This document shows, in pieces, positions 4,142 through 54,468 of a DNA stretch of 64,000 bases; the first letter of the stretch is position 1, and each line of letters begins with the position of its first letter. This DNA is from Nitrospirota bacterium (GTDB taxonomy: Bacteria > Nitrospirota > Thermodesulfovibrionia > Thermodesulfovibrionales > Dissulfurispiraceae): contig CAWBMP010000004.1 of NCBI GenBank assembly GCA_963790025.1, forward strand, positions 864,001 to 928,000, given 5' to 3'. The position numbers and the translations under genes were made by a program. The notes under the pieces were generated by a model. It was not told the origin of the DNA. It saw nothing but the letters and a program-made list of their open reading frames with translations, and searched no databases.

Positions 4142-4146
4142 ATCTG

Positions 4147-6075: not shown

Positions 6076-6688
6076 AGCCCTTGAGTATTTTCAGGCCGAG
6101 TTCCTGGCTCTTTTCGGGATGGAACTGTGTTGCAAAGATGTTGTCTTTCCACACCATCGAGACAAAATCAACTCCGTAATCCGTCCGTGCCGCAACAACA
6201 CCGCCGTCTTCCGGTACAACATAAAATGAGTGAACAAAATAGAAATATGCATTATCCTGAATGCCGTTAAATATGGGCGGCTTTCTGAGCAGCCTCGCAT
6301 TATTCCACCCCATGTGGGGGATTTTCAAAGTGGTACTGTCTTCCGTCTTCTGTACGTCAAACCTGAACTTGACGACCCTCCCTCTGAAAACATCCATCCC
6401 CTTGCACAAACCGAACTCTTCCGATTCCGTGAATAGTATTTGCAGACCAAGACATATGCCGAGATAGGGTTTGCCTTTTCCAATTTCCCTCACAATACAG
6501 TCGAGGAGGCGCAAGTCATCGAGATTTTGCATACAGTCCTTGAAAGCGCCCACTCCCGGCAGCACAATACCCTTTGCGTCGGCAATGACCTTCGGGTCAG
6601 CAGTTATTCTGACATCAGCGCCGATTTTTATAAATGCCTTCTCGACACTCCTGATGTTTCCCATGCCATAATCAACAATAGCGATCAT
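6050..6688 (-). CDS. hisH: Imidazole glycerol phosphate synthase, glutaminase subunit
   Basis: DYGMGN, LPGVGAF, GICLGLQ, PHMGWN, YFVHSF and QFHPEKS motifs. Confidence 0.97.
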   Translation of the reverse strand: MIAIVDYGMGNIRSVEKAFIKIGADVRITADPKVIADAKGIVLPGVGAFKDCMQNLDDLRLLDCIVREIGKGKPYLGICLGLQILFTESEEFGLCKGMDVFRGRVVKFRFDVQKTEDSTTLKIPHMGWNNARLLRKPPIFNGIQDNAYFYFVHSFYVVPEDGGVVAARTDYGVDFVSMVWKDNIFATQFHPEKSQELGLKILKGFDEFVGRS

Positions 6689-6729
6689 TTTTGAATCTCC
6701 CCAGCAAGTAATTCACACAGTGGTTAATG

Positions 6730-6905
6730 TAGTGAACGATGTGTCTCTGGAGCGAATCGCGTGGTCTTGGTAACAGTTCTTGGCGAAGTGAGCGTTAAGC
6801 AGTCGCAATATCTGAGCCCAACGGGCGGGTTTTGCGACTGCAGCGAACAAGCCTTTAGAACTGTCAAGACGCAGCGTCTGAGCGGAAGAGATACATCGTT
6901 CACTA
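6730..6905. repeat. 176-bp nested imperfect inverted repeat (long hairpin)
   Basis: Arm pairs tagtgaacgatgtgtctct/agagatacatcgttcacta, gtcttggtaacagttct/agaactgtcaagac and gcagtcgcaa/ttgcgactgc. Confidence 0.75.
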
Positions 6906-6981
6906 AACTGTCCGGTTACAGAAAAAGCATCTGACCAACCTGTTTTTAAATTATAATACAATAAAATGGAGGGAACAGTAT

Positions 6982-8121
6982 ATGAATAATCCATTCCCGA
7001 TTAATAAAGAACGGCTGATAAATACCTTTATCGAACTCATCAAAGTCAACTCCCCATCGTTTGACGAACGAGCGATAGGAGAATTGCTTGCGGGGAAATT
7101 ACGCGGCGCCGGCTGCAGCGTAACCATGCAGGACTACGGCGACTCTTTTAATCTTATCGCTTTTAAGGAAGGTGTAACCCGTGCCGTACCTCCACTCATT
7201 TTGAGCGCGCACATGGATACAATAGAGCCTACCGAAGGCATCACGTTCTCAATTGAAGACAACATCATCAGGACAACGGGCCCAACAATTCTCGGTGCTG
7301 ACGACAAGAGCGCCATTGCCCAGATAATTGAAGCGCTTCTCGTCCTGCAGGAACAAGACATTCCTCACGGTCACATTGAAATTATCTTAACATCGGCAGA
7401 AGAAAAAGGACTCCACGGCGCAAGGAACCTTGATTTTGGCTCGATAAGGAGCAAACATGCCATAGTTCTGGATTCGAGCGGCAGCGTCGGCAGTCTGGTC
7501 GTCGCAGCCCCTACCCACATCACCTATGAAATCCTTATTGAAGGCAAATCGGCCCATGCCGGAATAGAGCCCGAGCGGGGCATTAATGCCATTCGGGTCG
7601 CCTCCCGCATTATTGCCGAAATCCCTGATGGAAGGATCGATCCCGAAACAACTGCAAACATAGGTATTATCAAAGGAGGAACAGCAACCAATGTTGTCCC
7701 TCAAGAGGTGGTCATAAAGGGAGAGGTGAGAGGACACAACGTTGAGAAAATTGAACAGACAAAAAACGTAATTTTTCAGACTGCCAGACACATTACCGAA
7801 CAGGATCATGCCGGGATTAACATAACGGAGCAGGAAGAATATGCTGCCTACACTATTAGCCGCGAGTCGCCCTTTCTACGTTATCTCGGCAGCATTTTTA
7901 AAAAATGTGCCTTATCGCCGACGCACACGGTTACAGGAGGGGGCTCGGATGCAAATATCTTCAACCAAAGAGGCATACAGGCTATCACTATCTCCACAGG
8001 CATGCAGAAAGTGCATTCAACGGATGAGTTTATACGCATCACAGACCTTTATAACGGCTGCCTCGTTGTTATCAATGCAATAGCAGACTTTGACAAATTT
8101 GGAGAAGCCGCCACTTCCTGA
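6982..8121 (+). CDS. M20B-family peptidase (peptidase T-like)
   Basis: SAHMDT, GADDK, AEEKG, HAG, GGGSDAN and VH motifs. Confidence 0.92.
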   Translation: MNNPFPINKERLINTFIELIKVNSPSFDERAIGELLAGKLRGAGCSVTMQDYGDSFNLIAFKEGVTRAVPPLILSAHMDTIEPTEGITFSIEDNIIRTTGPTILGADDKSAIAQIIEALLVLQEQDIPHGHIEIILTSAEEKGLHGARNLDFGSIRSKHAIVLDSSGSVGSLVVAAPTHITYEILIEGKSAHAGIEPERGINAIRVASRIIAEIPDGRIDPETTANIGIIKGGTATNVVPQEVVIKGEVRGHNVEKIEQTKNVIFQTARHITEQDHAGINITEQEEYAAYTISRESPFLRYLGSIFKKCALSPTHTVTGGGSDANIFNQRGIQAITISTGMQKVHSTDEFIRITDLYNGCLVVINAIADFDKFGEAATS

Positions 8122-8130
8122 CGCCGAAAT

Positions 8131-8586
8131 CTACCTCCTTTTGCACAGACTTCCGGGCGGCGGTTCGTTGATGATCGCCCAGAAACCACCTATCTGTTTA
8201 ATGGCGTCAACAAACTTGTGGAAATCGACCGGCTTTACAACGTAGGCACTTGTGCCGGACTTGTACCCCTCGACTATATCCTTTTCTTCACTGGATGAGG
8301 TGAGGATCACCACCGGTATGACCCTGAGCCTCTCGTCTGCCTTAACCTGCCTGAGAACTTCGAGGCCTCCCACCTTGGGAAGCTTAAGGTCGAGCAAAAC
8401 AACGGCGGGATTACCGTCAGTCCTGCCCGAAAACTTTCCGCGGCAGTAAAAGAAATCCAACGCTTCTTCCCCATCCCGGGCAACTACAATCTCATTGGCA
8501 AAATTGTTTGAAGCAAGGCTTGCAATGATAAGTTCTACATCGTATGGATCATCTTCGACCAGCAAAATACGTTTCAGTTTCGGCAT
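8131..8586 (-). CDS. Single-domain response regulator (Rcp1-like)
   Basis: LVEDD, LLDLKLP, VILTSS and YVVKP receiver motifs. Confidence 0.92.
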   Translation of the reverse strand: MPKLKRILLVEDDPYDVELIIASLASNNFANEIVVARDGEEALDFFYCRGKFSGRTDGNPAVVLLDLKLPKVGGLEVLRQVKADERLRVIPVVILTSSSEEKDIVEGYKSGTSAYVVKPVDFHKFVDAIKQIGGFWAIINEPPPGSLCKRR

Positions 8587-8753
8587 AATATTTCCTTTCT
8601 CTTAATTTAAAAGCCAGGGCAAAATGCTGCACCCCGCAGTGCATTTCTATCGCCGGTTCTTTTTTGGTCCATACTATACCCATATCATATATAAAGATAA
8701 AATACAACAAGGCGCACCCGAATTCCTTAAACGTGGGTTATACTAAAAAGACA

Positions 8754-10637
8754 ATGATACTGGACGGTCTCAATCCACAACAAAGAGAAGCAGTAGAGCA
8801 TTTTGGCTCACCCCTCCTGGTGCTTGCAGGGGCAGGTTCAGGCAAAACAAAGGTCATCACACATAAGATTGCCTGGCTTGTGAAGGAAAAAGGGATAAAG
8901 GCCGACAGGATTCTCGCCATCACTTTTACCAGGAAGGCCGCGCGTGAAATGCAGGAGAGGGTCGAGCATATCCTTGGAATCAGGCCTAAGTGGATTTCGA
9001 CATTCCACGCTTTTTGCGTGAGAGTGCTCCGGGAAAATATCGCCGACCTTGAGAGAAGTTTCGACAGGCGTTTTAATATTTACGACGAAAAAGACAGCCT
9101 GAAGGTGCTCAAGGATGTCCTTAGAAATCTGAATAGGGACATAAAGAATGCGGAAACTGCTAAGGCGATTATTTCTAAAGCAAAACAGGAATACAGGGAC
9201 AATATAACCGGCTACATTGCCGGGCTCCCCTACCCCGCATCAGCTTATGCCCAGGTGGCCGAAAAGTATCAGGCCGAACTGGAACAGAGCAATGCAATGG
9301 ACTACGATGATCTGATTTACTTCGTTGTTCACCTATTCATAAAAAAACCCGGCGTCAGAAAGCGATGGCAGGACCATTTTGACTATATACTTGTCGATGA
9401 ATACCAGGATACAAACAAGATCCAGTATTTGCTGATAAATCTCGTCGTAAGAGAGGCGGGGGCTGTTTGTGTCGTGGGTGATCCACAGCAATGCATCTAT
9501 ACATGGCGGGGAGCACACCCCATGAATATCATTAATTTTGCGGAGGACCATGGTGCACGCAAGACAAAGCTGGAAATAAACTACCGTTCTACAAAAAAGA
9601 TATTGGACATCGCCAACAAGATCATAGCCGGGGCCGACCGCATATGGGAGGGCAAGATCCTTGAACTCAGCACTGTAAAAAGCGACACGGGAGAAGTACG
9701 GTATATGAGGAATGACAGCGGTACTGCCGAATCATCGTCTATAGCAGAGAAAATCCGGACGCTTAGCAGGCAGGGGTACCGCTACTCGGATATTGCCATT
9801 CTCATGAGGATGTCATTTGTGTCGAGGGGGATAGAGCATGCCTTCATCAATTACGGCATCCCTTATGAAATTATAGGAGGGCCTGCATTCTATGACAGGG
9901 CGGAGATCAAAGATATGCTCTCCTATCTCCGCCTCATAACAAACAGAAAAGACAAGGCCGCCTTCTGGAGGATAATTAACGTGCCGCCCAGGTCTATAGG
10001 GGCGCAAACACTTCTTAAGGTTACGAGCAACTATGTAACGGACTGGATACAGGCACTCAAAGATACAAAACTGCCGGCAAGACAGCGTGCCCGGGCAGAC
10101 CATTTTATGACCGCTATTAAATCATACGGGGACAGTATCGAGGAAAAACCATATGCAGTACTGATGGAACTACTTCGAGATTTGGGATACACAGAATACC
10201 TTGCCGAGCATTACAAAGACGACTATGAGGACCGCAAAGGCAACATATCGGAACTGGCGAACGTCCTGAAAACAGTGGAAACAGAAGGGAAGCCTTTTTC
10301 AGAATTTCTGGAAGATACTATCCTTTCCTCAGACCAGGACAGGATCGGGAGTTCCGATTCGGTAAAAGTGATGACCATCCACGCCGCCAAGGGTCTGGAA
10401 TTTCCGGTTGTCTTTGTAATGGCCCTTGAGGAAGAGATATTCCCGTCGGGCCGGTCAATGGAAAACTCGGCCGCACTCGAAGAGGAGAGACGACTTTTTT
10501 ATGTAGCGGTAACCAGGGCAAAGGAAAGGCTTTATCTCAGCTCAGCAGAATACAGGATGCGGTTCGGCGACGCAATGTTCGCCCCGGAATCCCGGTATAT
10601 TGGTGAAATTAGGGAAGAATTAAGGGCTGGCAAATAA
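8754..10637 (+). CDS. UvrD/PcrA/Rep-family SF1 DNA helicase
   Basis: LNPQQ, AGAGSGKT, DEYQD, VGDPQQ, NYRS, TIHAAKGLEF and EERRLFYVAVTRAK. ATG 8754 preferred over the upstream TTG. Confidence 0.94.
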   Translation: MILDGLNPQQREAVEHFGSPLLVLAGAGSGKTKVITHKIAWLVKEKGIKADRILAITFTRKAAREMQERVEHILGIRPKWISTFHAFCVRVLRENIADLERSFDRRFNIYDEKDSLKVLKDVLRNLNRDIKNAETAKAIISKAKQEYRDNITGYIAGLPYPASAYAQVAEKYQAELEQSNAMDYDDLIYFVVHLFIKKPGVRKRWQDHFDYILVDEYQDTNKIQYLLINLVVREAGAVCVVGDPQQCIYTWRGAHPMNIINFAEDHGARKTKLEINYRSTKKILDIANKIIAGADRIWEGKILELSTVKSDTGEVRYMRNDSGTAESSSIAEKIRTLSRQGYRYSDIAILMRMSFVSRGIEHAFINYGIPYEIIGGPAFYDRAEIKDMLSYLRLITNRKDKAAFWRIINVPPRSIGAQTLLKVTSNYVTDWIQALKDTKLPARQRARADHFMTAIKSYGDSIEEKPYAVLMELLRDLGYTEYLAEHYKDDYEDRKGNISELANVLKTVETEGKPFSEFLEDTILSSDQDRIGSSDSVKVMTIHAAKGLEFPVVFVMALEEEIFPSGRSMENSAALEEERRLFYVAVTRAKERLYLSSAEYRMRFGDAMFAPESRYIGEIREELRAGK

Positions 10638-10807
10638 ATAACTTGTGCATTCAGGCGCTCAGATTTGGGTTAGATTTTATAACACTGCTTGACAGTGCTG
10701 ACAGTATCGGATAAAGGTTTATATAGGACTTGACCGTCCAGTGATTAGCTTGCTAAACTTGAGTCATAAAGGTAAGTTACAAATCCTGATATTAAAAGGA
10801 GTCTGCC

Positions 10808-11290
10808 ATGCCCAAGTTCAAGTGGATACTCGTTGCGGTTTTATTTCTGGTTGCGGTGCAACCGGGTTTCGCTGATGATAGATCTCAGGTTCAAGGTATA
10901 TGGAAACTGGTTTCCTACAAAGTCGAGATTCAAGCCACTGGCCAAAAAGAATCCCCCATGGGACAAAACCCGACTGGTTATGTGATTTTTACACCCGAGG
11001 GGAGGGTATTTTTTATCCTTGCGGCAGAAGGACGGAAACCGGCTAAAACCGTTCAGAATCGTGCCGACTTGCTGAACAGCCTAGTTGCATATACCGGTAC
11101 GTACAGCATGAAAGGAGATAAGTGGATTACAAAGGTCGAGGTTGCCTGGAATCCTGAATGGATCGGCACTGAACAAGAACGTTTTTTTAAGGTGGATCAG
11201 GACCAACTTCAAGTCTTCACTCCGTGGCGAGTTATGCCTAACTGGGCAGAAAAGGGGATGACCAGGAGCATTATTATCTTCGAACGATAG
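10808..11290 (+). CDS. Secreted lipocalin-like domain protein
   Basis: Signal peptide; GxWKLVS, G..IFT.EG and AYTGTY pattern. Confidence 0.7.
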   Translation: MPKFKWILVAVLFLVAVQPGFADDRSQVQGIWKLVSYKVEIQATGQKESPMGQNPTGYVIFTPEGRVFFILAAEGRKPAKTVQNRADLLNSLVAYTGTYSMKGDKWITKVEVAWNPEWIGTEQERFFKVDQDQLQVFTPWRVMPNWAEKGMTRSIIIFER

Positions 11291-11421
11291 CATTGACATA
11301 AAATTATGGCAATCTAACAAGGCCATCAAGCGGCCTGTCGGTACAACTTTGCTGTGAGCACATGTTAAAAAAAGGGCAGGTCTGTTATGCAGACCCGCCC
11401 CCTAGCACAACGCTCCGGTTT

Positions 11422-11877
11422 TTATGGAATCTTCGCAGTAATTCTTAATTTCAATTCGTTCATTTGAGTGGCCATTTTCTTGTGTTTCTTTTCATCTTCC
11501 AGTATAAGCCTCAGCATCTGGGTAACTATGGTGTCATGGCTTAATGCAATTGCTTTTGTAGCAGTGTCAATCGATTTCTTCTCAAGCGCGATATGTTTGT
11601 TCAGCAGAGATGAAACGCCTGCAAGGTCTTCCGGGGCAAGCACAAAACCCTGCTTGGTCAAACCATCTATAACCATCTGCAGGATAGATTTATGTTTTTC
11701 CGAATCGTTCTTGATCGCGGCAGTTAAAGTTCCAATGATCGGGTTCTTTGCCTTATTAAGGATTGCCGTGCAACTTCTTATTGTTTGGTCCTCGATGCTT
11801 ACCCAACTCTTGAGCAACCTGAGCAGTTCCCTGTCGATGGATGCCCTTTTTTCCGGAGTTACTTTTTGCAATGCCAT
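11422..11877 (-). CDS. Ferritin-like (rubrerythrin-like) four-helix-bundle protein
   Basis: Two E...ExxH-like halves (IEDQT...SEKH and LEKKS...DEKKH). Confidence 0.6.
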   Translation of the reverse strand: MALQKVTPEKRASIDRELLRLLKSWVSIEDQTIRSCTAILNKAKNPIIGTLTAAIKNDSEKHKSILQMVIDGLTKQGFVLAPEDLAGVSSLLNKHIALEKKSIDTATKAIALSHDTIVTQMLRLILEDEKKHKKMATQMNELKLRITAKIP

Positions 11878-12028
11878 ACTACCTCCTATAATAAAGAATT
11901 TATTTCCCGGACTATATATTCCGGGCTATGATGTTTCATTGAATTTACAGCTCCACATTGCCAAGCCCCTTCCGTTCGTTTTTTAACATTTTATCACGAA
12001 ACCATCCAAAATAACAGCCGCTATGGCG

Positions 12029-12283
12029 TTATTCGACCGCGGGCTCATCCTCGTCAGTCAGCGGACTGCCTTCATCCGGATTAGCCTCTATCTCGGCCAA
12101 AACTTTTTTAACTTGATCCTCTGCATTCCTCAGTCTTGTTTTGCAAAGCTTCACCAGAAAGGCCGCCCTTTTAATCTTCTCTGCAAGCATGTCTACATCG
12201 ATGTCTTCAGCTTCTATCTCACTGATTATCTGTTCCAGCTCCATCAAAGCCTGGGAGTAAGCGGCTTGTTTGCTCGCGCTCAT
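12029..12283 (-). CDS. xseB: Exodeoxyribonuclease VII small subunit
   Basis: YSQALMELEQII...C...L..AE pattern; follows xseA. Confidence 0.9.
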   Translation of the reverse strand: MSASKQAAYSQALMELEQIISEIEAEDIDVDMLAEKIKRAAFLVKLCKTRLRNAEDQVKKVLAEIEANPDEGSPLTDEDEPAVE

Positions 12284-13547
12284 GGCTCCTTGTCCCCCTT
12301 TGTGTTCTTATAACACTTACAATACTTCCTTTATAAAGCGTTGTATCTATCGCAACCCCATTCCCGACAAAAGAAGCATCTTTCAGGACTTTACCGTTGT
12401 GGCGGGTAATGCTATAGCCCCTTTTGAGCACGTTCACAGGGTCCAGAAGTCTCAGCGCCTGCTCCATCGTATTGAGTGTATGCGTCCCCCGTTGTAAGCG
12501 CTGTCTTGCAGCATTCCCCATGGTACTTTGAAGCAGGAGCAGCCTGTTGATCCGGCCCGAAAGCGCCTGTCCCGGGAGGTATACAAGATGCCGGGCAAGA
12601 GAATTCAGCTTGTGGCGGAAATCCTGCAGCAGCCTTCCGGCGTATATCCTGATTCTGTTGTCAAGGTCCATAACGTTATCTTCAAAACTTCTGAGTCCCG
12701 AGACAAGGAATTCAGCAACCGCTGTAGGTGTCTTCATTCTGGTATGGGCGACAATATCCGCAACCGTGTCATCTTTTTCATGGCCTATCCCGGTAATAAC
12801 CGGAAGAGGGCATCCGGCTATATGAGCTGAGAGCGCATAATCGTCAAAACAATTCAGATCGACAGCGGAACCCCCGCCCCTGATAATGGCCACAACATCA
12901 AACAAATGCCGGTATTTCCCGATCTTTTGTAATGCTGCAACAATAGACCCCACAGCATCCTGCCCCTGCACCAGTGCAGGGAAAAGAATATGGACAAACT
13001 TATAGCCGTATGGATTGGCATCGAGCTGGTTAAAGAAATCGCCATATCCCGCAGCCGTCGGGGACGATATGACCGCAATCCTCTGTGGAACTGCAGGCAG
13101 CAGCAGGCTTTTATTCAGTTCGAGAAGGCCCTCTTTCCTCAGCCTCTCGATGACCTCCTTCCTCTTTCGCGCCATCTCCCCGAGAGTATATGTGGGATCA
13201 ATGTCTCTGATATTGAGGCTCAACCCATAGACCTCATGGAAATTCACTGAAGCAAGGAACATAATTTTCATGCCAGGCCGCAGTGACTCATTCGTAGCGG
13301 ACTGGAATTTATGGCTGATTTTCCGGTACTCATAAACCCATATGGTGGCCTTGTTTTGCGCTATAGTTCTATCATCAGCCTTTTCCACCAGTTCAAGATA
13401 GCAGTGTCCCCTCTGGTTGGATTTAAGTTCGGCTATTTCAGCAGTGACCCAGCAGGCATCAGGAAAGACACTGCCGATGGCTGACTTGATGGCAGTATTC
13501 AGTTCGTAGAGACTGAAGGCGGCATTATTCATTGATACTTCTTTCAT
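12219..13547 (-). CDS. xseA: Exodeoxyribonuclease VII large subunit
   Basis: GHCY, VQG, IIRGGGS, ITGIGHE, TPTA and LKRGYS motifs. Confidence 0.95.
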   Translation of the reverse strand: MKEVSMNNAAFSLYELNTAIKSAIGSVFPDACWVTAEIAELKSNQRGHCYLELVEKADDRTIAQNKATIWVYEYRKISHKFQSATNESLRPGMKIMFLASVNFHEVYGLSLNIRDIDPTYTLGEMARKRKEVIERLRKEGLLELNKSLLLPAVPQRIAVISSPTAAGYGDFFNQLDANPYGYKFVHILFPALVQGQDAVGSIVAALQKIGKYRHLFDVVAIIRGGGSAVDLNCFDDYALSAHIAGCPLPVITGIGHEKDDTVADIVAHTRMKTPTAVAEFLVSGLRSFEDNVMDLDNRIRIYAGRLLQDFRHKLNSLARHLVYLPGQALSGRINRLLLLQSTMGNAARQRLQRGTHTLNTMEQALRLLDPVNVLKRGYSITRHNGKVLKDASFVGNGVAIDTTLYKGSIVSVIRTQRGTRSHEREQTSRLLPGFDGAGTDNQ

Positions 13548-42810: not shown

Positions 42811-42883
<73 letters not shown>

Positions 42884-42916
42884 CTTTGAATTTCAATAAG
42901 TTATGCCATTCCATTT

Positions 42917-43993
42917 TTACCCTGAAATCCCGACTGTAGCAGAATTGTAGCAGATTTCTTTTTTTACCATTCCGCCGTTCAGGGTATTGTCCAAAATATC
43001 TACTGCTTTTACTTTGTGACTCGGTGCAAGATGAGCATATCTCAATGTCATCTTGATATCCTTATGCCCTAACAATTCTTTGACCGTGGTAATATCCACC
43101 CCTGCCATAACAAGATGTGATGCGAAGGTATGCCGCAGGTCATGAAACCGGAAATCTTTAATGCCTCCTTTTCTACATGCTGTAGAAAAGCTGTTCTTAA
43201 CGTCCTTATACGGTCTTCCGGTTGCATTGTCAAAAAAGACATAAGGAATATCGAGTCTCCTCGGTACGCTCTGAAAAACAGCCTTTAGAGTAACGTTAAT
43301 TGGTATCTCCCTGCGCTCTCCGTTCTTTGTCCTATCCAGAAGGATAAAACCGTGTTTCAAATCGATGTGAGCATCCCATCTCAGAGAGAGTATTTCACCT
43401 TTACGGCACCCCGTATTCATAGCTGTTGTTACGATGGGCTTCAGATGCGTATCACATGCATCAAGAAGTCTTATGCATTCTTCTTGTGAGAGATACCGAA
43501 GGCGCTTGTTATTCTCAGGCAGAAGTTTTACCCTGCGTATGCTTTTCAGGGCCGCTTCATCAATCATGTTCCAGTCAAGGGCCTTGGTGAACATATGAGA
43601 AAGTGTAGCAAGCAAACGGTTGGCAGTAGAAGGTTTATTCCCCTTCTTCAGTCTTTCCGTTTGAAACTCTTCAACCGTGCTTGTGTTGAAGTATGCCAGA
43701 TCACAATTCATATACCGCCTTGCCAATTGTTTCACCATATACCCTTTAGAAGTTCTCCATGATCGTTGTCTGCCTTCAGCCCATGCAGAATACTTCTCTA
43801 CAAGCTCGTCAAAAATATGGTGCTGTTTAATCTGCGACTTGTCAGAGCAAGCACCTTCCTGCATGTCAACAAGCGTTTTAGCATAGACTTTTTCAGCAAG
43901 CTTTTTGTTATCCGTTTTTGTGGATAACTGAATTCTCTTGCAGTCCTGCGTTATTGTAAACCAGAAGATTTTACCTCGTCGGTAAAGTCCCAT
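42917..43993 (-). CDS. Tyrosine recombinase / integrase
   Basis: TGCRKGE (R), TK, HDLRH (HxxR), LGH and RYAH (Y) catalytic residues are intact. Confidence 0.96.
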   Translation of the reverse strand: MGLYRRGKIFWFTITQDCKRIQLSTKTDNKKLAEKVYAKTLVDMQEGACSDKSQIKQHHIFDELVEKYSAWAEGRQRSWRTSKGYMVKQLARRYMNCDLAYFNTSTVEEFQTERLKKGNKPSTANRLLATLSHMFTKALDWNMIDEAALKSIRRVKLLPENNKRLRYLSQEECIRLLDACDTHLKPIVTTAMNTGCRKGEILSLRWDAHIDLKHGFILLDRTKNGERREIPINVTLKAVFQSVPRRLDIPYVFFDNATGRPYKDVKNSFSTACRKGGIKDFRFHDLRHTFASHLVMAGVDITTVKELLGHKDIKMTLRYAHLAPSHKVKAVDILDNTLNGGMVKKEICYNSATVGISG

Positions 43994-43996
43994 AGG

Positions 43997-44221
43997 CTAC
44001 GATCCTCCTTTCTTGGGACTTCCGGTCTGGACAAGAGGATTATAACCTGACTGCGCCTGTATCTTGCAATCCTGTATCCATTGTTTGATGTCGTCGAGGT
44101 CGAACCGCAGGGAGCCGTTAAGCTTCATATGCGGTATCTGATTCAGTTCTGCCCATTGATATATGGTCTTTGTCTTTACGCCTATCATGTCCGAAAGTTT
44201 CTTTACGTCTACTATCTGCAT
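43997..44221 (-). CDS. Excisionase-like helix-turn-helix protein
   Basis: 74 aa; KTIYQW...IP...LRF...I..W pattern; directly upstream of int. Confidence 0.85.
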   Translation of the reverse strand: MQIVDVKKLSDMIGVKTKTIYQWAELNQIPHMKLNGSLRFDLDDIKQWIQDCKIQAQSGYNPLVQTGSPKKGGS

Positions 44222-46539: not shown

Positions 46540-47373
46540 CTACGGGGAGTTGTTTTCTTTCGTCACATGTCTCACATAATCTTTGGACAAATATTTTTGC
46601 CAATTCGGAACTGCTAAAACGGGAGCCTTCTGTTCTGCATTACGATCCCATTCATGATCGGGGCTATACGGATAAAGACTGATATTATAGCTCTGAGCAC
46701 CATCAGATGCCTTAGTCTCTTTTATTGCGATAATATAAAGCTGGCTAAATTTATACCAATACACTTTCTTAGTACGAGATCCGGTATAAGAAATCACGGC
46801 TGCAACATAGAGCATCTTAGGTCTCGGATTTAGAGAGGATATCAAAGGGTGACAAGGTACACTCGCATCTTCCTGACCTGGGAATACGGTCTTTATATCT
46901 GGAAAATCGCCGTAAGCTTCCTTAAACCACTTGACGAAATCGATTTTACCTCTAATGTCGCTAGCAACCATATAATCAGTCTGCAAAATCGTAGCAGGCT
47001 CTTTGCCGACGTTAATAAATTGAAGATCACCACCACCAAACCACCCGCCTTCCGACTGATTAGGGGTAACAGATAGTTTATTAAGTTTAAGATACACGTA
47101 TGGCCGCTGTTCCAAATCAAATTTCGTGGATTCAATTGTATTCTGTGTACTCTGTATATCTACACTTCTTTTTAGTTGCATAGTCTGATAACCTAAGAAA
47201 AACAATGTCGGAATACCCACGATTGCAAGAAGAATCGAGCCAATAGCAGAATATTTCTCCGCATTTTGTTTTGTGATTCTCGTATATAAGAAAATAAGTG
47301 GGAGTACAACAAAACAGATAATGAGACCAGAAATTGATATTAACAACTTATAATTCGACCAGAACCCGCCCAT
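46540..47373 (-). CDS. Hypothetical cargo protein: two N-terminal TM helices plus a beta-rich soluble domain
   Basis: Hydrophobic segments followed by EQRPYV. The ORF could extend to TTG 47553. Confidence 0.7.
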   Translation of the reverse strand: MGGFWSNYKLLISISGLIICFVVLPLIFLYTRITKQNAEKYSAIGSILLAIVGIPTLFFLGYQTMQLKRSVDIQSTQNTIESTKFDLEQRPYVYLKLNKLSVTPNQSEGGWFGGGDLQFINVGKEPATILQTDYMVASDIRGKIDFVKWFKEAYGDFPDIKTVFPGQEDASVPCHPLISSLNPRPKMLYVAAVISYTGSRTKKVYWYKFSQLYIIAIKETKASDGAQSYNISLYPYSPDHEWDRNAEQKAPVLAVPNWQKYLSKDYVRHVTKENNSP

Positions 47374-47607
47374 ATTACTCGAAGACAAAAAGCCCCCCTT
47401 TTTGGCTCGAATTGTTCTACTTCTAATGTCCACAATCTTACCACAACAATACTCGCTTTTTACAGAAGAGGACTGATTAATCCAATTCCGCGTCTTCACT
47501 CCAACATCCCTAACAGTCGCGTATTTCCAATATATCTCTTGATATCTTTTCAACAGGTCAATCTTGGTATAAACTCGACATTGAAACTGTCTGCCTAATG
47601 GGGAAGC

Positions 47608-50511
47608 TTACGATATTTTCTTTGCAAGATCATTTTCTGAGAAACCATGCATTTCTAATCCTTTTTTATGCATCCAGATGACTTGGTTGTCTCCCTTCGC
47701 TATTTCGACGATATCATTGTAATCTATATAATCATTACATTTGGGACAATATATGCCCAGATCGCTAAGTCTTATCCTTAAGCCTATATCGCCTGTCAAA
47801 CACTTCCACGAATTTTCAAAGATTCCATTAAAATAGGCCGCAAATATTTCACGTTTACTTTTAAGTTCTTCTTCAAATTCAGATATTACTGCCAATTTTC
47901 TCAGACCTTTCTCTTGAACGTCATTAAGAAAATTACGTAGTCCATGAAAACCTAGATGTGAATGTTTTTTTGAAATAATTTGTCCATCTTCAGTTTGGGG
48001 GGATCTCGAAAATTCTACCTCGGGGTCTACCGTGCCGAGATGAGGGACTAAAAGCTGACACTTTAAATATTGTACAGAAATGCTTTTATCATAGCTTGTA
48101 TCGTTCGGCATCCCTATACACAACGGCCTTCCCTTGTACTGAAAAGGGTTATCTGCTTCATGCATTTCAAAAAGCAAGCCCGTCGAAAAGCCTTCGCTGA
48201 AGAGTTCCTTATGTTCCGCTTTCATTACTTTTAATATAAAATCAAAACCTTTTCGTTTTATAGAATCGCCATGATTTAAAATAATGACATCACTTAACGA
48301 TTTATGAAATGTGGTCCAACTCATAAATTTTGCCGCTGCTCCGCGGTTCATGAATAATACCAACCTCTGCGGCGCATAATCTATCTGGTAGCCTGTTTTC
48401 TTTTCAAGTTCTTCTCTTTTGGGATTGCCTTTCTCCGACTTATCCAAAAGATCGTTAAGTTCATAAATTAAAGTTAATACTGCTTCAAGGTCGTGCGTAT
48501 GGTCGAAATGTGCGTGTGTTAATATTATGGCATCAAGATCCCTCAGAGTGAACCCTTGCTCTATAAAATTATCAATAAATCCAATCCCAGGATCAATGAC
48601 GATTCCCTTACCGTTCCATGCTAAAAAATACCCTCCGCCTCTACTGCCTTCTTTGTAATACATCGATGGAGTATAAGAATTAAATTTCCTTAATATACAC
48701 AGAAACTTATCATCTTCCTTTAACGTCCGAGGGGCTAGTAGAAATTTCCAGAAATCTGATTGTTCCTTCTCTCTAATTCCAAATAGATCATTAAGTACTT
48801 CGGTTACCGTATCGACTGGTGATGATACCCTTATAGGTGTTTTCTCTATATCTGCAATTTTTTTGGTAATCCTTGATTCCCAGATATCAAAGTCTTTAAG
48901 TCTGTCGTCACCGCTCTCAAAATGCTTTTTAGCTTTATGAAACATGCCAAGTGATTCTCTAAATAGAGAAGCATCATTCTTCAATTCAGCCAAATTAAAC
49001 AAGGCATAACCACAGTTATAGTATGCTTGGTGATAATCCTCTTTATACTTCACAGCCAGGGCATATTTCTCAAAAGACTCCCTGAAAAGAGCCTCGTCAT
49101 TTCTTATCCTCGCAAGGGCTGATAATGCATTGCCCCAATTATTGTATGCTTTGTGATAATCCTCTTTATACTTCACAGCCAGGGCATATTTCTCAAAAGA
49201 CTCCCTGAAAAGAGCCTCGTCATTTCTTATCCTCGCAAGGGATGATAATCCAGTGCCCCAGTTATAGTATGCTTCGTGATCATCCTCTTTATACTTCACA
49301 GCCAGGGCATATTTCTCAAAAGACTCCCTGAAAAGAGCCTCGTCATTTCTTATCCTCGCAAGGGCTGATAATGCATTGCCCCAATTATTGTATGCTTGGT
49401 GATAATCCTCTTTATACTTCACAGCCAGGGCATATTTCTCAAAAGACTCCCTGAAAAGAGCCTCGTCATTTCTTATCCTCGCAAGGGCAAGTAATGCATT
49501 GCCCCAGTTATAGTATGCTTCGTGATAATCCTCTTTATACTTCACAGCCAGGGCATATTTCTCAAAAGACTCCCTGAAAAGAGCCTCGTCATTTCTTATC
49601 CTCGCAAGGGCTAGTAATGCATTGCCCCAATTATTGTATGCTTGGTGATAATCCTCTTTATACTTCACAGCCAGGGCATATTTCTCAAAAGACTCCCTGA
49701 AAAGAGCCTCGTCATTTCTTATCCTCGCAAGGTCTGATAATGCATTGCCCCAGTTATAGTATGCTTCGTGATAATCCTCTTTATACTTCACAGCCAGGGC
49801 ATATTTCTCAAAAGACTCCCTGAAAAGAGCCTCGTCATTTCTTATCCTCGCAAGGGCTAGTAATGCATTGCCCCAATTATTGTATGCTTGGTGATAATCC
49901 TCTTTATACTTCACAGCCAGGGCATATTTCTCAAAAGACTCCCTGAAAAGAGCCTCGTCATTTCTTATCCCCGCAAGGTCTGATAATGCATTGCCCCAAT
50001 TATTGTATGCTTGGTAATAATCCTCTTTATACTTCACAGCCAGGGCATATTTCTCAAAAGACTCCCTGAAAAGAGCCTCGTCATTTCTTATCCCCGCAAG
50101 GTCTGATAATGCATTGCCCCAATTATAGTATGCTTGGTGATAATCCTCTTTATACTTCACAGCCAGGGCATATTTCTCAAAAGACTCCCTGAAAAGAGCC
50201 TCGTCATTTCTTATCCCCGCAAGGTCTGATAATGCATTGCCCCAGTTATAGTATGCTTCGTGATAATCCTCTTTATACTTCACAGCCAGGGCATATTTCT
50301 CAAAAGACTCCCTGAAAAGAGCCTCGTCATTTCTTATCCCCGCAAGGTCTGATAATGCATTGCCCCAGTTATAGTATAAAACCGATTTGCTTTGGGCTGA
50401 TTTGGCCTCATCGGTCAAACTTTGAAAAAACTTGTTAGCATCTTCTAATTGACCCTTTTTCGCAAGGTCACGCGCTTTCTTAATCTGCGCTCGAAACTCT
50501 TTGTCTTGCAT
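47608..50511 (-). CDS. Tandem 41-aa TPR-like repeats fused to an MBL-fold metallo-hydrolase
   Basis: GAAGGAG RBS before ATG 50511; 11 plus 1 repeats; GGGYF, IVIDPG and THAHFDH (HxHxDH), later H/D residues and a C-terminal CPKC. Confidence 0.9.
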   Translation of the reverse strand: MQDKEFRAQIKKARDLAKKGQLEDANKFFQSLTDEAKSAQSKSVLYYNWGNALSDLAGIRNDEALFRESFEKYALAVKYKEDYHEAYYNWGNALSDLAGIRNDEALFRESFEKYALAVKYKEDYHQAYYNWGNALSDLAGIRNDEALFRESFEKYALAVKYKEDYYQAYNNWGNALSDLAGIRNDEALFRESFEKYALAVKYKEDYHQAYNNWGNALLALARIRNDEALFRESFEKYALAVKYKEDYHEAYYNWGNALSDLARIRNDEALFRESFEKYALAVKYKEDYHQAYNNWGNALLALARIRNDEALFRESFEKYALAVKYKEDYHEAYYNWGNALLALARIRNDEALFRESFEKYALAVKYKEDYHQAYNNWGNALSALARIRNDEALFRESFEKYALAVKYKEDDHEAYYNWGTGLSSLARIRNDEALFRESFEKYALAVKYKEDYHKAYNNWGNALSALARIRNDEALFRESFEKYALAVKYKEDYHQAYYNCGYALFNLAELKNDASLFRESLGMFHKAKKHFESGDDRLKDFDIWESRITKKIADIEKTPIRVSSPVDTVTEVLNDLFGIREKEQSDFWKFLLAPRTLKEDDKFLCILRKFNSYTPSMYYKEGSRGGGYFLAWNGKGIVIDPGIGFIDNFIEQGFTLRDLDAIILTHAHFDHTHDLEAVLTLIYELNDLLDKSEKGNPKREELEKKTGYQIDYAPQRLVLFMNRGAAAKFMSWTTFHKSLSDVIILNHGDSIKRKGFDFILKVMKAEHKELFSEGFSTGLLFEMHEADNPFQYKGRPLCIGMPNDTSYDKSISVQYLKCQLLVPHLGTVDPEVEFSRSPQTEDGQIISKKHSHLGFHGLRNFLNDVQEKGLRKLAVISEFEEELKSKREIFAAYFNGIFENSWKCLTGDIGLRIRLSDLGIYCPKCNDYIDYNDIVEIAKGDNQVIWMHKKGLEMHGFSENDLAKKIS
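49024..50376 (-). repeat. Coding tandem repeat, 11 x 123 bp (plus a degenerate 12th at ~48901-49023)
   Basis: Unit YYNWGNALSDLAGIRNDEALFRESFEKYALAVKYKEDYHEA; the 72-bp core appears identical in all 11 copies. Confidence 0.97.
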
Positions 50512-50756
50512 AAGCTCTCCTTCGCATATCGCCACCAAAAAGCTACATTACTATATCACAAAATACTAATGTCTATTAAAAAATCATGAACGTTTTGACG
50601 ATGGGAGACTGTAGTAAAATTGTAGCAGAACATATCGAAAAGGCGGTATCAGACAGAAAATACCGAACAATGCAGAAAGAAAATCTTTGTCATTAATTCA
50701 ATAAGATAGCTAATTGTCCAGACCAGAAGCCACTTTGTCTAAATTAACCCTGTAGC

Positions 50757-50804
50757 GAATGGCATTCAAGAGGTCGACGGTTCGATCCCGTTCAGCTCCA
50801 CTTT
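50757..50804 (+). repeat. att site: second copy of the tRNA-Ala 3' half
   Basis: Identical to 42840-42887. Confidence 0.95.
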
Positions 50805-50958
50805 AAACTTCTCATTCATTTGCTCGTCATTAACCCCTCCAGAAAGAATAAATAAAGAGGACAGTTCTTTTAATTGCTGTTTGTTATTAAATCGTTAAGT
50901 AATGGAAAGAGAGAGCCTAATTGCATTATAATTCAACTATGAGGAAAGGAGGTTCATT

Positions 50959-51156
50959 ATGTCTGTTAAAGATATGATCAAAAACGAGATCGATAAGCTG
51001 CCTGAGAATCTTCTTGCAGAGGTTTTTGACTTTATCCAATTTTTAGAAACTAAGAAAGAAAAAACTCTCCTCGCCAAGGCATCACAGGAACTTTCAAGTC
51101 TAGCATTTGAGAAAATATGGAATAATGACGAGGATGCAGTCTATGACAGCCTATGA
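50959..51156 (+). CDS. DUF2281-like putative antitoxin
   Basis: LPE.LLAEVFDFIQFL...W...ED..YD.L; AGGAGG RBS; overlaps the toxin start. Confidence 0.75.
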   Translation: MSVKDMIKNEIDKLPENLLAEVFDFIQFLETKKEKTLLAKASQELSSLAFEKIWNNDEDAVYDSL

Positions 51157-51337
51157 AAAGGGAGATGTTGTCCTTGTCCCTTTCCCCTTCAGCAACCAGA
51201 CCGATCTTAAGAAGCGTCCGGCAGTAATCATAAGCGCGAACTCCTATAACAATGCTTCCCATGATGCGGTCATTATGGCGATCACAAGCCAGATTGGAAA
51301 AACTATCGGCATCGGAGAATGCCTCATAACGAAATGA
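51143..51337 (+). pseudogene. PemK/MazF-family toxin, C-terminally truncated (64 aa)
   Basis: GDVVLVPFPFS...KKRPAVIIS...AITS, then an early TGA with no recognisable continuation. Confidence 0.75.
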
Positions 51338-51525
51338 CTCTTTCCACATTACGTCCCGGCCATGCTACTATAATCAGCTGATCGGACTATGCAGTTTTTA
51401 TGCAGTTCATATCTGCAAAGATATGCAAGAAAAGCAGTCCGTTCTTCTTCTGTGATACGCTGAAATGCAAGTATTTGCAAAGACTTGCCAGTATTTGAAA
51501 GGTAAGTCATTGAAAAAGAACATAC

Positions 51526-51570
51526 ATGGCATTCAAGAGGTCGACGGTTCGATCCCGTTCAGCTCCACCA
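51526..51570 (+). repeat. att site: third copy of the tRNA-Ala 3' half, ending in CCACCA
   Basis: atggcattcaagaggtcgacggttcgatcccgttcagctccacca. Confidence 0.93.
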
Positions 51571-51634
51571 TTTATTTTCAAGCACTTGCATGTCTTTAAA
51601 TCTCTCCTCCAACCGCCTGATTGTAAGGTTTTTG

Positions 51635-51830: not shown

Positions 51831-52298
51831 ATGGACGTAAGAGATAACACTTTCAATTTAAAGTGCGAGATGCTCAAGAAAACCAAGTGGGTGAGCGATT
51901 TCACATTGCAGGAGATTGAGGAGTTTGCCGACTACCTGCATATTGTAAATGCGATAAAGGATACACATATATTCAATGAGGGCGACGAAGACTCCTTCAT
52001 GTGTCTTATCGTAGAAGGCAGTATCTCAATAGTGAAAGAGGCTTACAGTGGCATGAAGAAGACCGTAACTATTCTGTACAACGGAACCTTCGGGGAGATG
52101 GCTCTCATCGACGGAAATCCCCGCTCCGCTTCCGCCTTAGCCGTTGAAAATAGCATCCTTCTGACGCTGAACAACTTGCATTTCAAGCAACTCCTTGCCA
52201 ATAGCCCGAACTTGGGAATAAAAATCCTGTTAAAACTATCACAGCTCATGAGCCAGCGGCTCCGCTCAACCACAGACATGCTGATTGATTACCTGTAG
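51831..52298 (+). CDS. Stand-alone cyclic nucleotide-binding domain protein, copy 1
   Basis: IFNEGD, FGEMALID..PRSASA; no HTH. Confidence 0.88.
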   Translation: MDVRDNTFNLKCEMLKKTKWVSDFTLQEIEEFADYLHIVNAIKDTHIFNEGDEDSFMCLIVEGSISIVKEAYSGMKKTVTILYNGTFGEMALIDGNPRSASALAVENSILLTLNNLHFKQLLANSPNLGIKILLKLSQLMSQRLRSTTDMLIDYL

Positions 52299-52497: not shown

Positions 52498-53418
52498 TTA
52501 ACCGTCTTTCTTAATAACAGCTATCAGTTCGTCTCTGACCTTCTCCCATTGATCTATGGGAACCTGACAGGTCCCGACAACTGCGTGGCCCCCTCCACCG
52601 TATTTGAGCATCAGAGATCCTACATTTGTTTTTGAGGTCCGGTTAATTATGCTGTGTCCGCAGGTAATTACCATGTTCTGTTTTTTAAACCCCCATATGA
52701 TTCTCATCGAAATATTCTGATCAGGGAACAGAACGTATTCCTTGAACCGGTTTCCGCAAAGAATTTCTTCTACATTGTGAAGATCGATAATCAGTACATT
52801 CCCATCCGCCTTGCTGTTTGCATTGATCATCGCTTCGTACGCTTTTTCCTGTTCATAATACCGTTTAATGCGTTCCTGCACATCCGGCTTGCTGAGAATC
52901 TCTTCCACATCCATTTCACGACAGTATTTTATCATGTCTTCCATGAGATTATAATTTGAGATCCTGTAGTCCCGATATCTTCCCAATCCTGTGCGGGGAT
53001 CCATTATAAATGAAAGCAATATCCAACCTTTCGGATTTGTAATGTCTTCTGCCGTCAAATTCCCGCTGTCACTCTTATCAACCGAAACCATCAATCCGTT
53101 TTCATCATATCTGGCAAATTTTGCAGCACCGCCATAATAATCGTATATGACTCTGGCACAACTGGGCGCAACTTCAGACTTGCCTTTAAATTCGAGTCTC
53201 GATTCCAGCCGTTCTTTTTCGCTGGAATGATGATCAAACCACAAACCGCAACCGGAGACATATGGAATGTTCGCAAGAACGTCATTTTTGGTAACAGTAA
53301 CCTTTCCGTCCTGAATATCCTTGGGGTGAACAAACGTATATTCATCCACCACACCAGCTTCCACGAGTAAAACCGCACACACAAGACCGTCGTAGTCCGA
53401 CCGGGTTAATAGCCTCAT
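52498..53418 (-). CDS. DHH-family phosphoesterase (often annotated exopolyphosphatase-like)
   Basis: TRSDYDG, WFDHH and GGGGH (DHHA1-like). Confidence 0.85.
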   Translation of the reverse strand: MRLLTRSDYDGLVCAVLLVEAGVVDEYTFVHPKDIQDGKVTVTKNDVLANIPYVSGCGLWFDHHSSEKERLESRLEFKGKSEVAPSCARVIYDYYGGAAKFARYDENGLMVSVDKSDSGNLTAEDITNPKGWILLSFIMDPRTGLGRYRDYRISNYNLMEDMIKYCREMDVEEILSKPDVQERIKRYYEQEKAYEAMINANSKADGNVLIIDLHNVEEILCGNRFKEYVLFPDQNISMRIIWGFKKQNMVITCGHSIINRTSKTNVGSLMLKYGGGGHAVVGTCQVPIDQWEKVRDELIAVIKKDG

Positions 53419-53997
53419 AATTTGATCCTCCTATAACAATTTGTCGTCAAGAACGCCAAAAGATCCGGCTGATCTTTACCCATAGCAAGCATCTATTTAT
53501 TTGCCCTGGACAGACTATAATCGGCAACCGCATGCCAGGTTTTCTCTACGAATTCTTCTGATATGGGTTCCATCTTACAAATCTCCCCGTTAGAACTTTT
53601 ATTCGAACCATCCATATTATACCTGATTTTGTGGCCCTGATAAATGAAAGGCACTTTGCCGACCTCATAAAGGGACCGGTAAACCCGTAAGCTTCCCCTC
53701 CAAGTAGACAGCATATAAGTAAAGCTTGCTGAAGCAGTGTGAATGCCATATTTACTGTAGTAAAAATGTAGCAGAACATATCGAGAGCACAAAAAATACC
53801 GAACATACCGAATGGTGAATGAGGTCATCCCTTAGTTATTGACATTCTCAATTAAAGAATTCCCTGAATATCAAATATCAATGTGTTTAACCCTAGCGAC
53901 CCTGATGACCCGTAATAATATCCCCACTCTTGATAATTTACTTTTCAGGTGATATTCTTAATAGTATGTTTAAAAAACAATTCCCTATCGGCCTATT

Positions 53998-54468
53998 ATG
54001 GACTTAAGAGGCGACGCTTTCTATCTAAAGTGCGAGATGCTCAAGAAAACCCAGTGGGCAAGCGACTTCACATTAGGTGAGATTGAACAGTTTGCCGACT
54101 ACCTGTTTGTTGTGCATGCGCTAAAGGATATGCCTGTTTTCAGTGAGGGCGACGAAGACGCCTTCATGTGTCTTATCGTAGAAGGCAGCATCTCCATAGT
54201 AAAAGAGGATTACAGCGGCATGAAGAAGACCATAACTACTCTGCACGACGGAAATACCTTCGGAGAGATAGCACTTATCGACGGAAGTCCCCGCTCCGCT
54301 TCCGCCATCGCCGTTGAAAATAGCACTCTTCTTACACTCCACAACATGTATTTCAAGCAACTCCTCGACAATAGCCCGAACCTGGGAATAAAGATCTTGT
54401 TCAAACTCGCACGGCTCATGAGCCAGAGGCTTCGCGTAACCACAGACATGCTGATTGATTACCTGTAG
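53998..54468 (+). CDS. Stand-alone cyclic nucleotide-binding domain protein, copy 2
   Basis: VFSEGD, FGEIALID..PRSASA; close paralog of 51831-52298. Confidence 0.88.
   Translation: MDLRGDAFYLKCEMLKKTQWASDFTLGEIEQFADYLFVVHALKDMPVFSEGDEDAFMCLIVEGSISIVKEDYSGMKKTITTLHDGNTFGEIALIDGSPRSASAIAVENSTLLTLHNMYFKQLLDNSPNLGIKILFKLARLMSQRLRVTTDMLIDYL

Follow-up and report, generated by a model that had tools for sequence, protein, structure and literature searches.

We have analyzed a stretch of 64,000 nucleotides (the window) of a Nitrospirota bacterium (assembly GCA_963790025.1, contig CAWBMP010000004.1, positions 864,001 to 928,000 of the forward strand), and specifically a gene of its minus strand, at 47608..50511, that joins an array of tetratricopeptide repeats (TPR) to a module of the metallo-beta-lactamase (MBL) fold and is carried by an integrative element. 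The open reading frame (ORF) is open throughout from 47608 to 50538; a TTG start would give a protein of 976 amino acids (aa), and the ATG at 50511, with a Shine-Dalgarno sequence (AAGGAG) ~7 nt 5' of it, gives one of 967 aa plus the stop. A scan for promoters and terminators gave sites no more frequent than in shuffled sequences. From the N-terminus, and always on the minus strand, we distinguish capping helices (residues 1–41, 50389..50511; helices 2–18 and 22–35 in the model), the repeat array (42–533, 48913..50388), with 11 near-identical 41-aa units of two helices followed by a degenerate 12th, a helical linker (~534–600, 48712..48912), and the MBL module with a C-terminal beta-rich domain (~601–967, 47611..48711), a phosphodiesterase as predicted from fold and motifs. 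A GIVIDPG motif and the metal-binding motif HAHFDH (666–671, 48499..48516) are both located in this C-terminal domain. The Pfam scan of the protein gave Lactamase_B (3.9e-10), Lactamase_B_2 (5.5e-7) and TPR_11 (1e-8). A pattern search of the protein for a Walker A motif ([AG]xxxxGK[ST]) found none, nor did the Pfam and NCBIfam scans detect an NTPase family, and the highest Kyte-Doolittle mean over 19 residues was 0.9, so that no membrane or signal segment is indicated. A preliminary description of this DNA, made from the letters alone, had reported a ~967-aa ORF with 11 near-identical 41-aa helical repeats, an IVIDPG sequence, an intact HxHxDH motif, no signal peptide and neither STAND NTPase nor Walker A, and all of these features were confirmed.

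The repeat array is extremely homogeneous. Tandem Repeats Finder gave a period of 123 nt with 11.1 copies between 49016 and 50377 (96% matches, 0% indels, score 2472), in agreement with the units set in register, 11 at residues 42–492 and the degenerate 12th at 493–533. The mean pairwise DNA identity of units 2–11 (ten units, 410 aa) was 0.96 and the best protein identity over three units 0.98, which places the array among the highly internally conserved repeats as defined in PMC4986451 (at least 85% identity over at least 100 aa). Near-identical units such as these point to a recent expansion and homogenisation of the array. In the AlphaFold2 model of the full-length protein (predicted local distance difference test, pLDDT, 89.0; predicted template modeling score, pTM, 0.70) the array is a regular superhelix, with pLDDT ~98 and helices 17–18 residues long, and the PDB structures most similar to this model were designed consensus TPR (CTPR) proteins and the OGT and SPINDLY TPR superhelices.

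The few differences between units are far from randomly placed. We found 13 variable nucleotide positions in units 2–11, all of them within nt 1–49 of the 123, and the remaining 74 nt (50–123) were invariant across all 11 units; the chance of such a placement is ~6e-6. At 9 of the 10 variable codons of units 2–11 the residue was altered. Positions 3, 6, 10, 13, 14 and 17 of the unit, which are among the variable ones, have a spacing of 3–4 residues that corresponds to one face of a helix, in this case the first helix of the unit (helix A, residues 2–19 in the model). In TPR superhelices, helix A is the one that faces the concave groove. The differences between units of this array are thus confined to one face of helix A, and among 1034 units of the array relatives described below the six helix-A positions of highest entropy were the same six. 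There is also a pattern along the array, where E-Y and Q-N types of unit alternate and the identity at lag 2 (0.972) exceeds that at lag 1 (0.959), which suggests the duplication of a two-unit block.

To find proteins with similar arrays we used residues 1–533 as query and obtained 1392 proteins at E<=1e-5; for the 119 non-self matches listed, the domains given in the Pfam columns were tallied by hand. Matches to the unit were found in all 119, and the 45 relatives shown had 6–16 units per array, spaced mostly by 40–45 residues. SIR2_2 was present in 69 of the 119, MinD/ParA-type domains in five and AAA_16/ATPase_2 in four, i.e., other proteins combine a repeat type of 41–44 aa with domains of the SIR2, STAND-like and MinD-like kinds. 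The SIR2 parts lie at the N-terminus, and their matches in PADLOC are the pAgo-associated, ThsA-type and PDC-S65 SIR2 models. The MBL module was found in none of the 119 listed relatives, and for this reason we consider the window protein a rare combination of two widespread modules. Compared with SIR2 plus array proteins such as the 'SIR2 family protein' of Prevotella intermedia (P0379 of our search), it shares the repeat type, with 40–74% identity over the arrays, and differs in the enzyme, which in those proteins is the N-terminal SIR2. Many of the proteins retrieved (P0364–P0482) have this layout, with SIR2 at the N-terminus and TPR-like units of 40–45 aa arrayed at the C-terminus; examples come from P. 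intermedia, Vibrio vulnificus and Thiotrichales, and their PADLOC matches were confined to the SIR2 part.

The MBL module, in turn, belongs by sequence to a large family that has no name. With the C-terminal 448 aa as query, phmmer retrieved from 1.84 billion representatives 1650 matches at E<=1e-3, 1190 at E<=1e-10 (a set whose weaker members may belong in part to other MBL families) and 119 at E<=1e-30. Even the best matches other than the protein itself were only 42–43% identical. Family alignments of 19 (A1) and 101 (A2) sequences define a signature over ~400 aa composed of an LRRWNSYTP strand ([LA]R[RK][WF]NSYTP), GGGY, DPG and HxHxDH, so that the NSYTP..GGGYF..IDPG motif by which the preliminary description had proposed to recognize homologues is indeed the mark of a large family. 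The window protein has every invariant column of A1, and A2 agrees with this; in the module numbering of P0002 they are R89, S93, T95, P96, GGGY, D121-P-G, H147xH149xD151-H152, H248, D285, H305, H333 and E359. SEFGEE and GDIGL motifs are also conserved. Most members end in a CxxC..CxxC ribbon, of which the window protein retains the first pair only. The family, which lacks functional annotation, includes both archaea and bacteria from anoxic habitats. A tblastn search with the module gave no match in 50,697 phage records nor in 72,556 plasmids; the array likewise gave none in the phage records, and in the plasmids distant TPR proteins only, in 12 records.

The AlphaFold2 model of the module (pLDDT 87.3, pTM 0.84) was compared with solved structures using Foldseek. 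The nearest folds were an MBL-type arylsulfatase (8gyg), the ElaC homologue 1zkp, YhfI (E 1e-13), Apyc1 (7u2s/7u2r, ~1e-11), RNase Z, PNGM-1, yeast PDE1 and the cAMP-bound MBL 7e3w, and PqqB was also matched (1.8e-9). The model therefore predicts a di-metal MBL phosphodiesterase of the ElaC/RNase Z-YhfI-Apyc1 branch with all its metal ligands intact. By fold it is on the same branch as Apyc1, YhfI and 1zkp (target-normalised TM 0.69–0.84, E 1e-11 to 1e-14), and it has their HxHxDH site. It differs from them in that the identity is only 10–14%, the module is ~150 aa larger and is fused to a TPR array, and it has in addition a helical linker at the N-terminus, the RRWNSYTP strand and a beta-rich part at the C-terminus. 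The preliminary description had called the domain an MBL-fold hydrolase and had noted that such domains occur as nuclease or hydrolase components of defence systems. A nuclease is one option only, since an MBL of the RNase Z/YhfI/Apyc1 type could also be a phosphodiesterase of cyclic nucleotides.

Three more precise assignments were considered. RNase Z, the tRNA 3' endonuclease, is similar in fold and gave the best NCBIfam matches, but the module is not a member of it; these matches amount to 30.4 bits against a curated cut-off of 416 and 24.3 against 293 (TIGR02651 / NF000805), and over all the RNase Z models the scores were 24–30 bits against cut-offs of 252–416, with alignments limited to the HxHxDH region. 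In the case of Apyc1, PF23023 (Anti-Pycsar_Apyc1) appears in the precomputed Pfam lists of the window protein and of the family, whereas our own Pfam scan had no match to it at E<=1, and phmmer against the Apyc1 chain 7u2s_A gave a weak E = 0.53 where the fold match had 1.3e-11; the module is not the compact phage-encoded Apyc1 (~250 aa), as it has ~370–450 aa, is fused to a 533-aa array and has no matches in phage records. Finally, the trypsin-MBL modules (HamM) are described in PMC12799240 as ComEC-like DNases that an adjacent fused trypsin-like protease activates. The likeness there is an MBL-fold enzyme, in HamM a latent effector of antiphage systems. Kinship with HamM, as described there, is rejected on the fold neighbours of the module (ElaC, YhfI, Apyc1) and on the lack of a protease partner, because none of the element's genes matched a protease family in the Pfam, NCBIfam and PHROGs scans.

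We have examined the architectures of the MBL family by a hand count of the Pfam columns of its 119 listed non-self matches. The N-terminal partner was TPR in 103, SIR2_2 in three and no known family in 13. Besides, we scanned 80 loci, all from genomes other than that of the window, and a module profile with ORF calling recovered the gene in 78. An N-terminal extension of at least 150 aa was present in 60 of these and one of less than 60 aa in 18, some of which were cut by contig ends and three of which have C-terminal extensions. Near-identical arrays are not exclusive to the window protein, as at least three units at 80% identity or more were found in 25 of 205 other N-terminally extended members, there with a period of 34 aa and lineage-specific sequences. 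Otherwise the family has a patchy distribution over bacteria and archaea, and its neighbourhoods are not conserved outside close relatives.

One group of stand-alone members has a characteristic context. In the 12 loci of a neighbourhood cluster (12/12) a DGQHR/DpdB-like gene lies directly upstream of the MBL gene on the same strand, most of these loci have downstream a radical-SAM-like gene (~460 aa, no NCBIfam match), and genes for a SNF2/ZorD-like helicase, a GHKL ATPase, PbeA/PbeC or Mrr occur with them. Judging from the gene content, this operon appears to be a system of DNA modification or restriction that has not been described before; our literature search found no description of it, nor of the TPR-MBL protein or its family. 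It is found at L017 (5096–12638; L numbers denote the scanned loci), L026, L027, L045/L047, L051–L053, L057, L072 and L074, and L045 and L047 are identical blocks ~26 kb apart on one contig (DAINAU010000004.1). In a FastTree tree of 75 rows (four short rows had been dropped beforehand) the DpdB-linked stand-alone genes come out as a single clade (support 92), of 11 stand-alone members. The branch of the window protein is long (1.58) and its placement unsure; it falls within a clade (support 99) together with TPR-fused genes of Altiarchaeum and Methanobacteriota, one TPR-fused gene of Desulfobacteria and two split forms, L006 and L012. In these (L006 981–4192, L012 8005–11035) the MBL gene stands alone and is overlapped or abutted by an upstream gene for HD-GYP and TPR, which in L012 has a receiver domain as well, and the split form of L012 sits among histidine kinase, receiver and sigma-54-type genes.

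Radical SAM genes appear in other parts of the family too, which brings up an explanation of a different kind: the module could be an accessory enzyme of radical-SAM pathways, as is PqqB, an MBL protein, beside PqqE and PqqD, and the array would hold the precursor peptide. L030, L031, L055, L062 and L079 each have a radical SAM gene at ±1, on the strand of the MBL gene; the best NCBIfam matches at L030, L062 and L006 were peptide maturases (PapB, geopeptide and SCIFF types) and at L031 and L055 cofactor maturases. PqqB, as said, is among the fold matches. The members of L075–L077 and L079 lie near asparagine synthase and glycosyltransferase genes, L075 having rSAM-SPASM, PqqD and methylase genes as well. 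Even so, this is very unlikely to be the role of the window protein, whose element has no radical SAM gene; the adjacency is scattered on the tree (five changes for five rows, no clustering), and anaerobes such as these commonly have radical SAM genes. As for the L075 type itself (L075 at 3036–12669), its proteins have 1071–1255 aa with an N-terminal part that lacks a Pfam match, a squalene-cyclase-like repeat protein is common to the L075–L077 clusters, the methylase gene of L075 is of the N6_N4 type, and a DNA methylase-type gene directly upstream is shared by L075, L076 and L077. On gene content the set resembles a peptide natural-product cluster.

The element that carries the TPR-MBL gene has clear boundaries. 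Its integration target is a tRNA-Ala(ggc) gene (42811–42884, plus strand), the sole match of the Rfam scan. The last 45 nt of this gene plus 10 nt of flank make up attL (42840–42894, plus), a direct repeat of 55 nt whose second copy, attR (50757–50811, plus; 96% over 55 nt), is a copy of the 3' part of the tRNA and ends an element of 7.9 kb. A tyrosine integrase (42917..43993, minus; Phage_integrase 1.9e-32, phrog_1 1.2e-65) and an HTH_17 excisionase-like protein detected by the Pfam and PHROGs scans (43997..44221, minus) lie next to the tRNA; then come small genes without family, a gene for a 337-aa protein with two hydrophobic helices and no family match, downstream of the TPR-MBL gene on the same strand (46540..47553, minus), and, last at the far end, the TPR-MBL gene. 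With 2.9 of the 7.9 kb this is the largest cargo, and the att repeats, the integrase and the excisionase-like gene agree with the tRNA-integrated element of the preliminary description. The G+C content is 0.37–0.43 within the element and ~0.47 outside. Scans of the window protein and the element genes with PADLOC, NCBIfam and PHROGs gave no system-level match. Next to the homologues of the MBL gene we found no relative of the 337-aa protein, and the neighbour genes in the window were in none of the 25 neighbour clusters listed for the homologue loci.

Some further features were observed at the edges of the element. Just inside both ends there is a direct repeat of 23 nt, 91% identical (42932–42954 and 50607–50629), whose copies may be arm-type binding sites of the integrase. 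Beyond attR, a third att copy (51524–51578, plus; 87%) closes a module of 0.77 kb (50802–51578) with a VapB-like antitoxin gene (50959–51156; NCBIfam 2.4e-6) overlapping a 64-codon ORF (51143–51337) that had no match in NCBIfam and which we take to resemble the N-terminal half of a toxin of the MazF/PemK type. The sequence suggests that this remnant is a leftover of another insertion, and that insertions have occurred serially at the same tRNA-Ala site. The product of the Cys-tRNA ligase gene adjoining the element is 75–78% identical to proteins of Dissulfurispiraceae and of Nitrospirae metagenome-assembled genomes. In a stretch of low G+C just past the element we found genes for two stand-alone proteins with a domain for the binding of cyclic nucleotide monophosphates (cNMP), of 155 and 156 aa (51831–52298 and 53998–54468, both plus), separated by two unannotated genes (52498–53418 and 53493–53828, both minus). 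The one that was scanned matches the PycTIR and 'Effector TIR' models of PADLOC, presumably through the nucleotide-binding part of those models, as Pfam gave cNMP_binding only.

These cNMP-binding proteins may lend some support to the idea that the MBL module acts on second messengers, hydrolysing cyclic mono- or oligonucleotides as do Apyc1, YhfI and class II phosphodiesterases, with the array as scaffold or regulator; on a mobile element such an enzyme would blunt the cyclic-nucleotide immunity of the host, as an anti-defence, or rewire its signalling. The fold matches to YhfI, Apyc1, yeast PDE1 and 7e3w, the presence of PF23023 in the precomputed lists, and the overlap of the MBL genes of L006 and L012 with genes for HD-GYP, a domain of the c-di-GMP phosphodiesterase type, and TPR all go in the same direction. 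We still consider it unlikely. The cNMP-binding genes are not within the att-bounded element, the ~400-aa module has family-specific N- and C-terminal parts that Apyc1 lacks, our own sequence searches gave no match to PF23023 and only a weak one to the Apyc1 chain, the module is absent from the phage and plasmid records, and the clade in operons with DpdB, SNF2 and PbeAC points to DNA.

Among the known defence systems, PADLOC-DB 2.0.0 gave a spurious PrimPol as the sole match of the window protein, with no stretch passing, and with no real match it is not a named system, in line with the preliminary description, which had not recognized it as one. The closest precedent in design comes from the Avs7 sensor. 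According to PMC13581612 (2026) and its preprint PMC12803255, the TPR sensor of Avs7 is also found with diverse effectors in proteins that have no STAND NTPase, including Dsr1; both Avs7 and Dsr1 sense the major capsid protein of phages; and a figure legend of PMC13581612 has MBL among its effector labels. The logic of a bare repeat sensor with a swappable enzyme is thus already known. The window protein resembles the Dsr1 type in having a TPR-type sensor and an enzymatic effector in one polypeptide without STAND NTPase, as well as in the swapping of effectors on a shared sensor and in horizontal spread, the sensors being compared here by description only. It differs in that the effector is C-terminal (N-terminal in the Dsr1 type, as described there) and RNase Z/Apyc1-like, and in that its array is a regular superhelix of near-identical units where the sensor of the Avs7 type is described as sharply bent and bilobed. 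The lack of a P-loop NTPase domain also separates it from STAND/Avs receptors in general. The NOD-like receptors (NLRs) of fungi, as described in PMC4986451, have highly internally conserved TPR, ANK or WD repeats, with TPR motifs mostly of 42 aa and variable sites on the concave side. The likeness in near-identical repeats and TPR length is one of analogy and not of membership, as those proteins are eukaryotic and have a NOD NTPase.

The reading that we favour, at somewhat less than even chances, is that the window gene codes for a single-chain sensor-effector without NTPase that takes part in conflicts among element, host and phage, with an RNase Z-like phosphodiesterase as its output. We base it on the architecture with its intact catalytic motifs, on the transport of the gene as cargo of a mobile element with att repeats, integrase and low G+C, on a repeat type that swaps effectors and varies on one face of helix A, and on the recurrence of near-identical arrays in an MBL family in which the N-terminal partner varies. 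The clade with DpdB-like and radical-SAM-like genes, the context of L009, whose gene follows those for an HmaB-like methylase and a helicase of the PLD-SNF2 type, and the precedent of Avs7 and Dsr1 are consistent with it. In such a mechanism the inner groove of the array would bind a protein or peptide of a phage or rival mobile element, and homogenisation of the units would permit a fast retuning of the binding surface. The bound ligand would relieve an autoinhibition of the MBL module or drive oligomerisation, and the active enzyme would cleave nucleic acid, most likely RNA or tRNA 3' ends given its RNase Z-like fold. The outcome would be growth arrest that protects the element and the host population.

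Several observations weigh against this. The model leaves the position of the array relative to the enzyme undefined, because the linker stretches are of low confidence (pLDDT below 50 at residues 558–579 and 609–625 of the full-length model; three linker helices at 67–91 in that of the module), so that the gating of one by the other is pure conjecture. Its structural neighbours are, by model, tRNA-processing or cyclic-nucleotide enzymes and not known defence DNases, and part of the variation among units comes from the two-unit block duplication rather than from selection. The tree, for all its unsure placement, groups the window protein with the split forms L006 and L012 of two-component/HD-GYP signalling operons. 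PADLOC has no model for the MBL family, and eight other members had no match to their MBL part. Moreover, we compared the neighbourhoods of fused homologues using PADLOC at E<=1e-15: 148 neighbours within two genes at 48 fused loci, and as control 105 genes at least six genes away in 41 of the same loci, an imperfect control since it lies in the same neighbourhoods. Matches were found in 21 of the 148 near proteins (17/48 loci) and in 10 of the 105 distal ones (10/41 loci), which is not a significant difference (Fisher, p = 0.33 for proteins and 0.36 for loci), and therefore we claim no enrichment in defence islands. Several of the near matches were generic by Pfam (cysteine desulfurase, GlgB, sigma-54 activator, HhH-GPD, receiver domains, RmuC), leaving ~9 of the 48 loci with near neighbours clearly of defence or mobile type: a PARIS-like AriAB with integrase fragments, AbiEi/AbiEii, an AbiZ-like gene, Uma2, a YhcG-type PD-(D/E)XK, a methylase, a methylase with PLD-SNF2 helicase, a toxin-antitoxin pair and a reverse transcriptase. 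Many fused loci have housekeeping neighbours, e.g., methionyl-tRNA synthetase, fumarase, RtcB, 3-dehydroquinate synthase and NusB.

A non-immune enzyme would fit these neighbours. In this case the TPR superhelix would feed a macromolecule to the catalytic module, as in OGT or SPINDLY, for RNA processing or turnover, and the location on the element would be incidental. OGT and SPINDLY, which join a TPR superhelix to a C-terminal enzyme, are after all the best full-length structural matches, the best NCBIfam matches are RNase Z models, and the gene is kept beside 3-dehydroquinate synthase II in four Altiarchaeum genomes. We find it rather improbable, considering the patchy family and its unconserved neighbourhoods, the RNase Z score of 30 bits against a cut-off of 416, and the low-G+C integrative element on which the window copy lies; recently expanded near-identical arrays and the swapping of effectors would be unexpected in a housekeeping enzyme. 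Coming back to the sensor-effector that the preliminary description had proposed, its architecture and its location on a mobile element held up, the effector swapping of the repeat type, the one-face variation and the Dsr1 precedent add support, and no significant excess of defence neighbours was found; the check on homologues sharing the motif that had been proposed with it placed one clade in DpdB-like operons, many fused homologues among housekeeping genes and the closest split relatives in two-component/HD-GYP operons. An immune role of the window protein is, on its sequence, plausible and unproven.

A wider reading, which we offer with considerable doubt, would join these observations. 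The array would be a portable, fast-evolving recognition cassette that in prokaryotes is plugged onto SIR2, onto STAND-like and MinD-like ATPases and here onto a phosphodiesterase of the RNase Z/Apyc1 type; the window protein would be the first example of an effector class new to immune receptors that work independently of an NTPase; and the MBL family would also be the core of the undescribed DNA-modification or restriction operon with DpdB-like and radical-SAM-like genes. By analogy, the variable residues on one face of the helix would in such a cassette be like the specificity positions of designer-like repeat proteins. If the sensor-effector reading is true, an RNase Z-like phosphodiesterase would join the effectors gated by a bare repeat sensor without an NTPase switch, and a natural, near-idealised array with about six variable positions per unit would be a convenient system to learn how sensors gain new specificities. 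The operon of DpdB-like, MBL and radical-SAM-like genes is a separate lead for the biology of DNA modification. And as the family is large (119 representatives at E<=1e-30) and unannotated, a single biochemical assay would annotate many genes.

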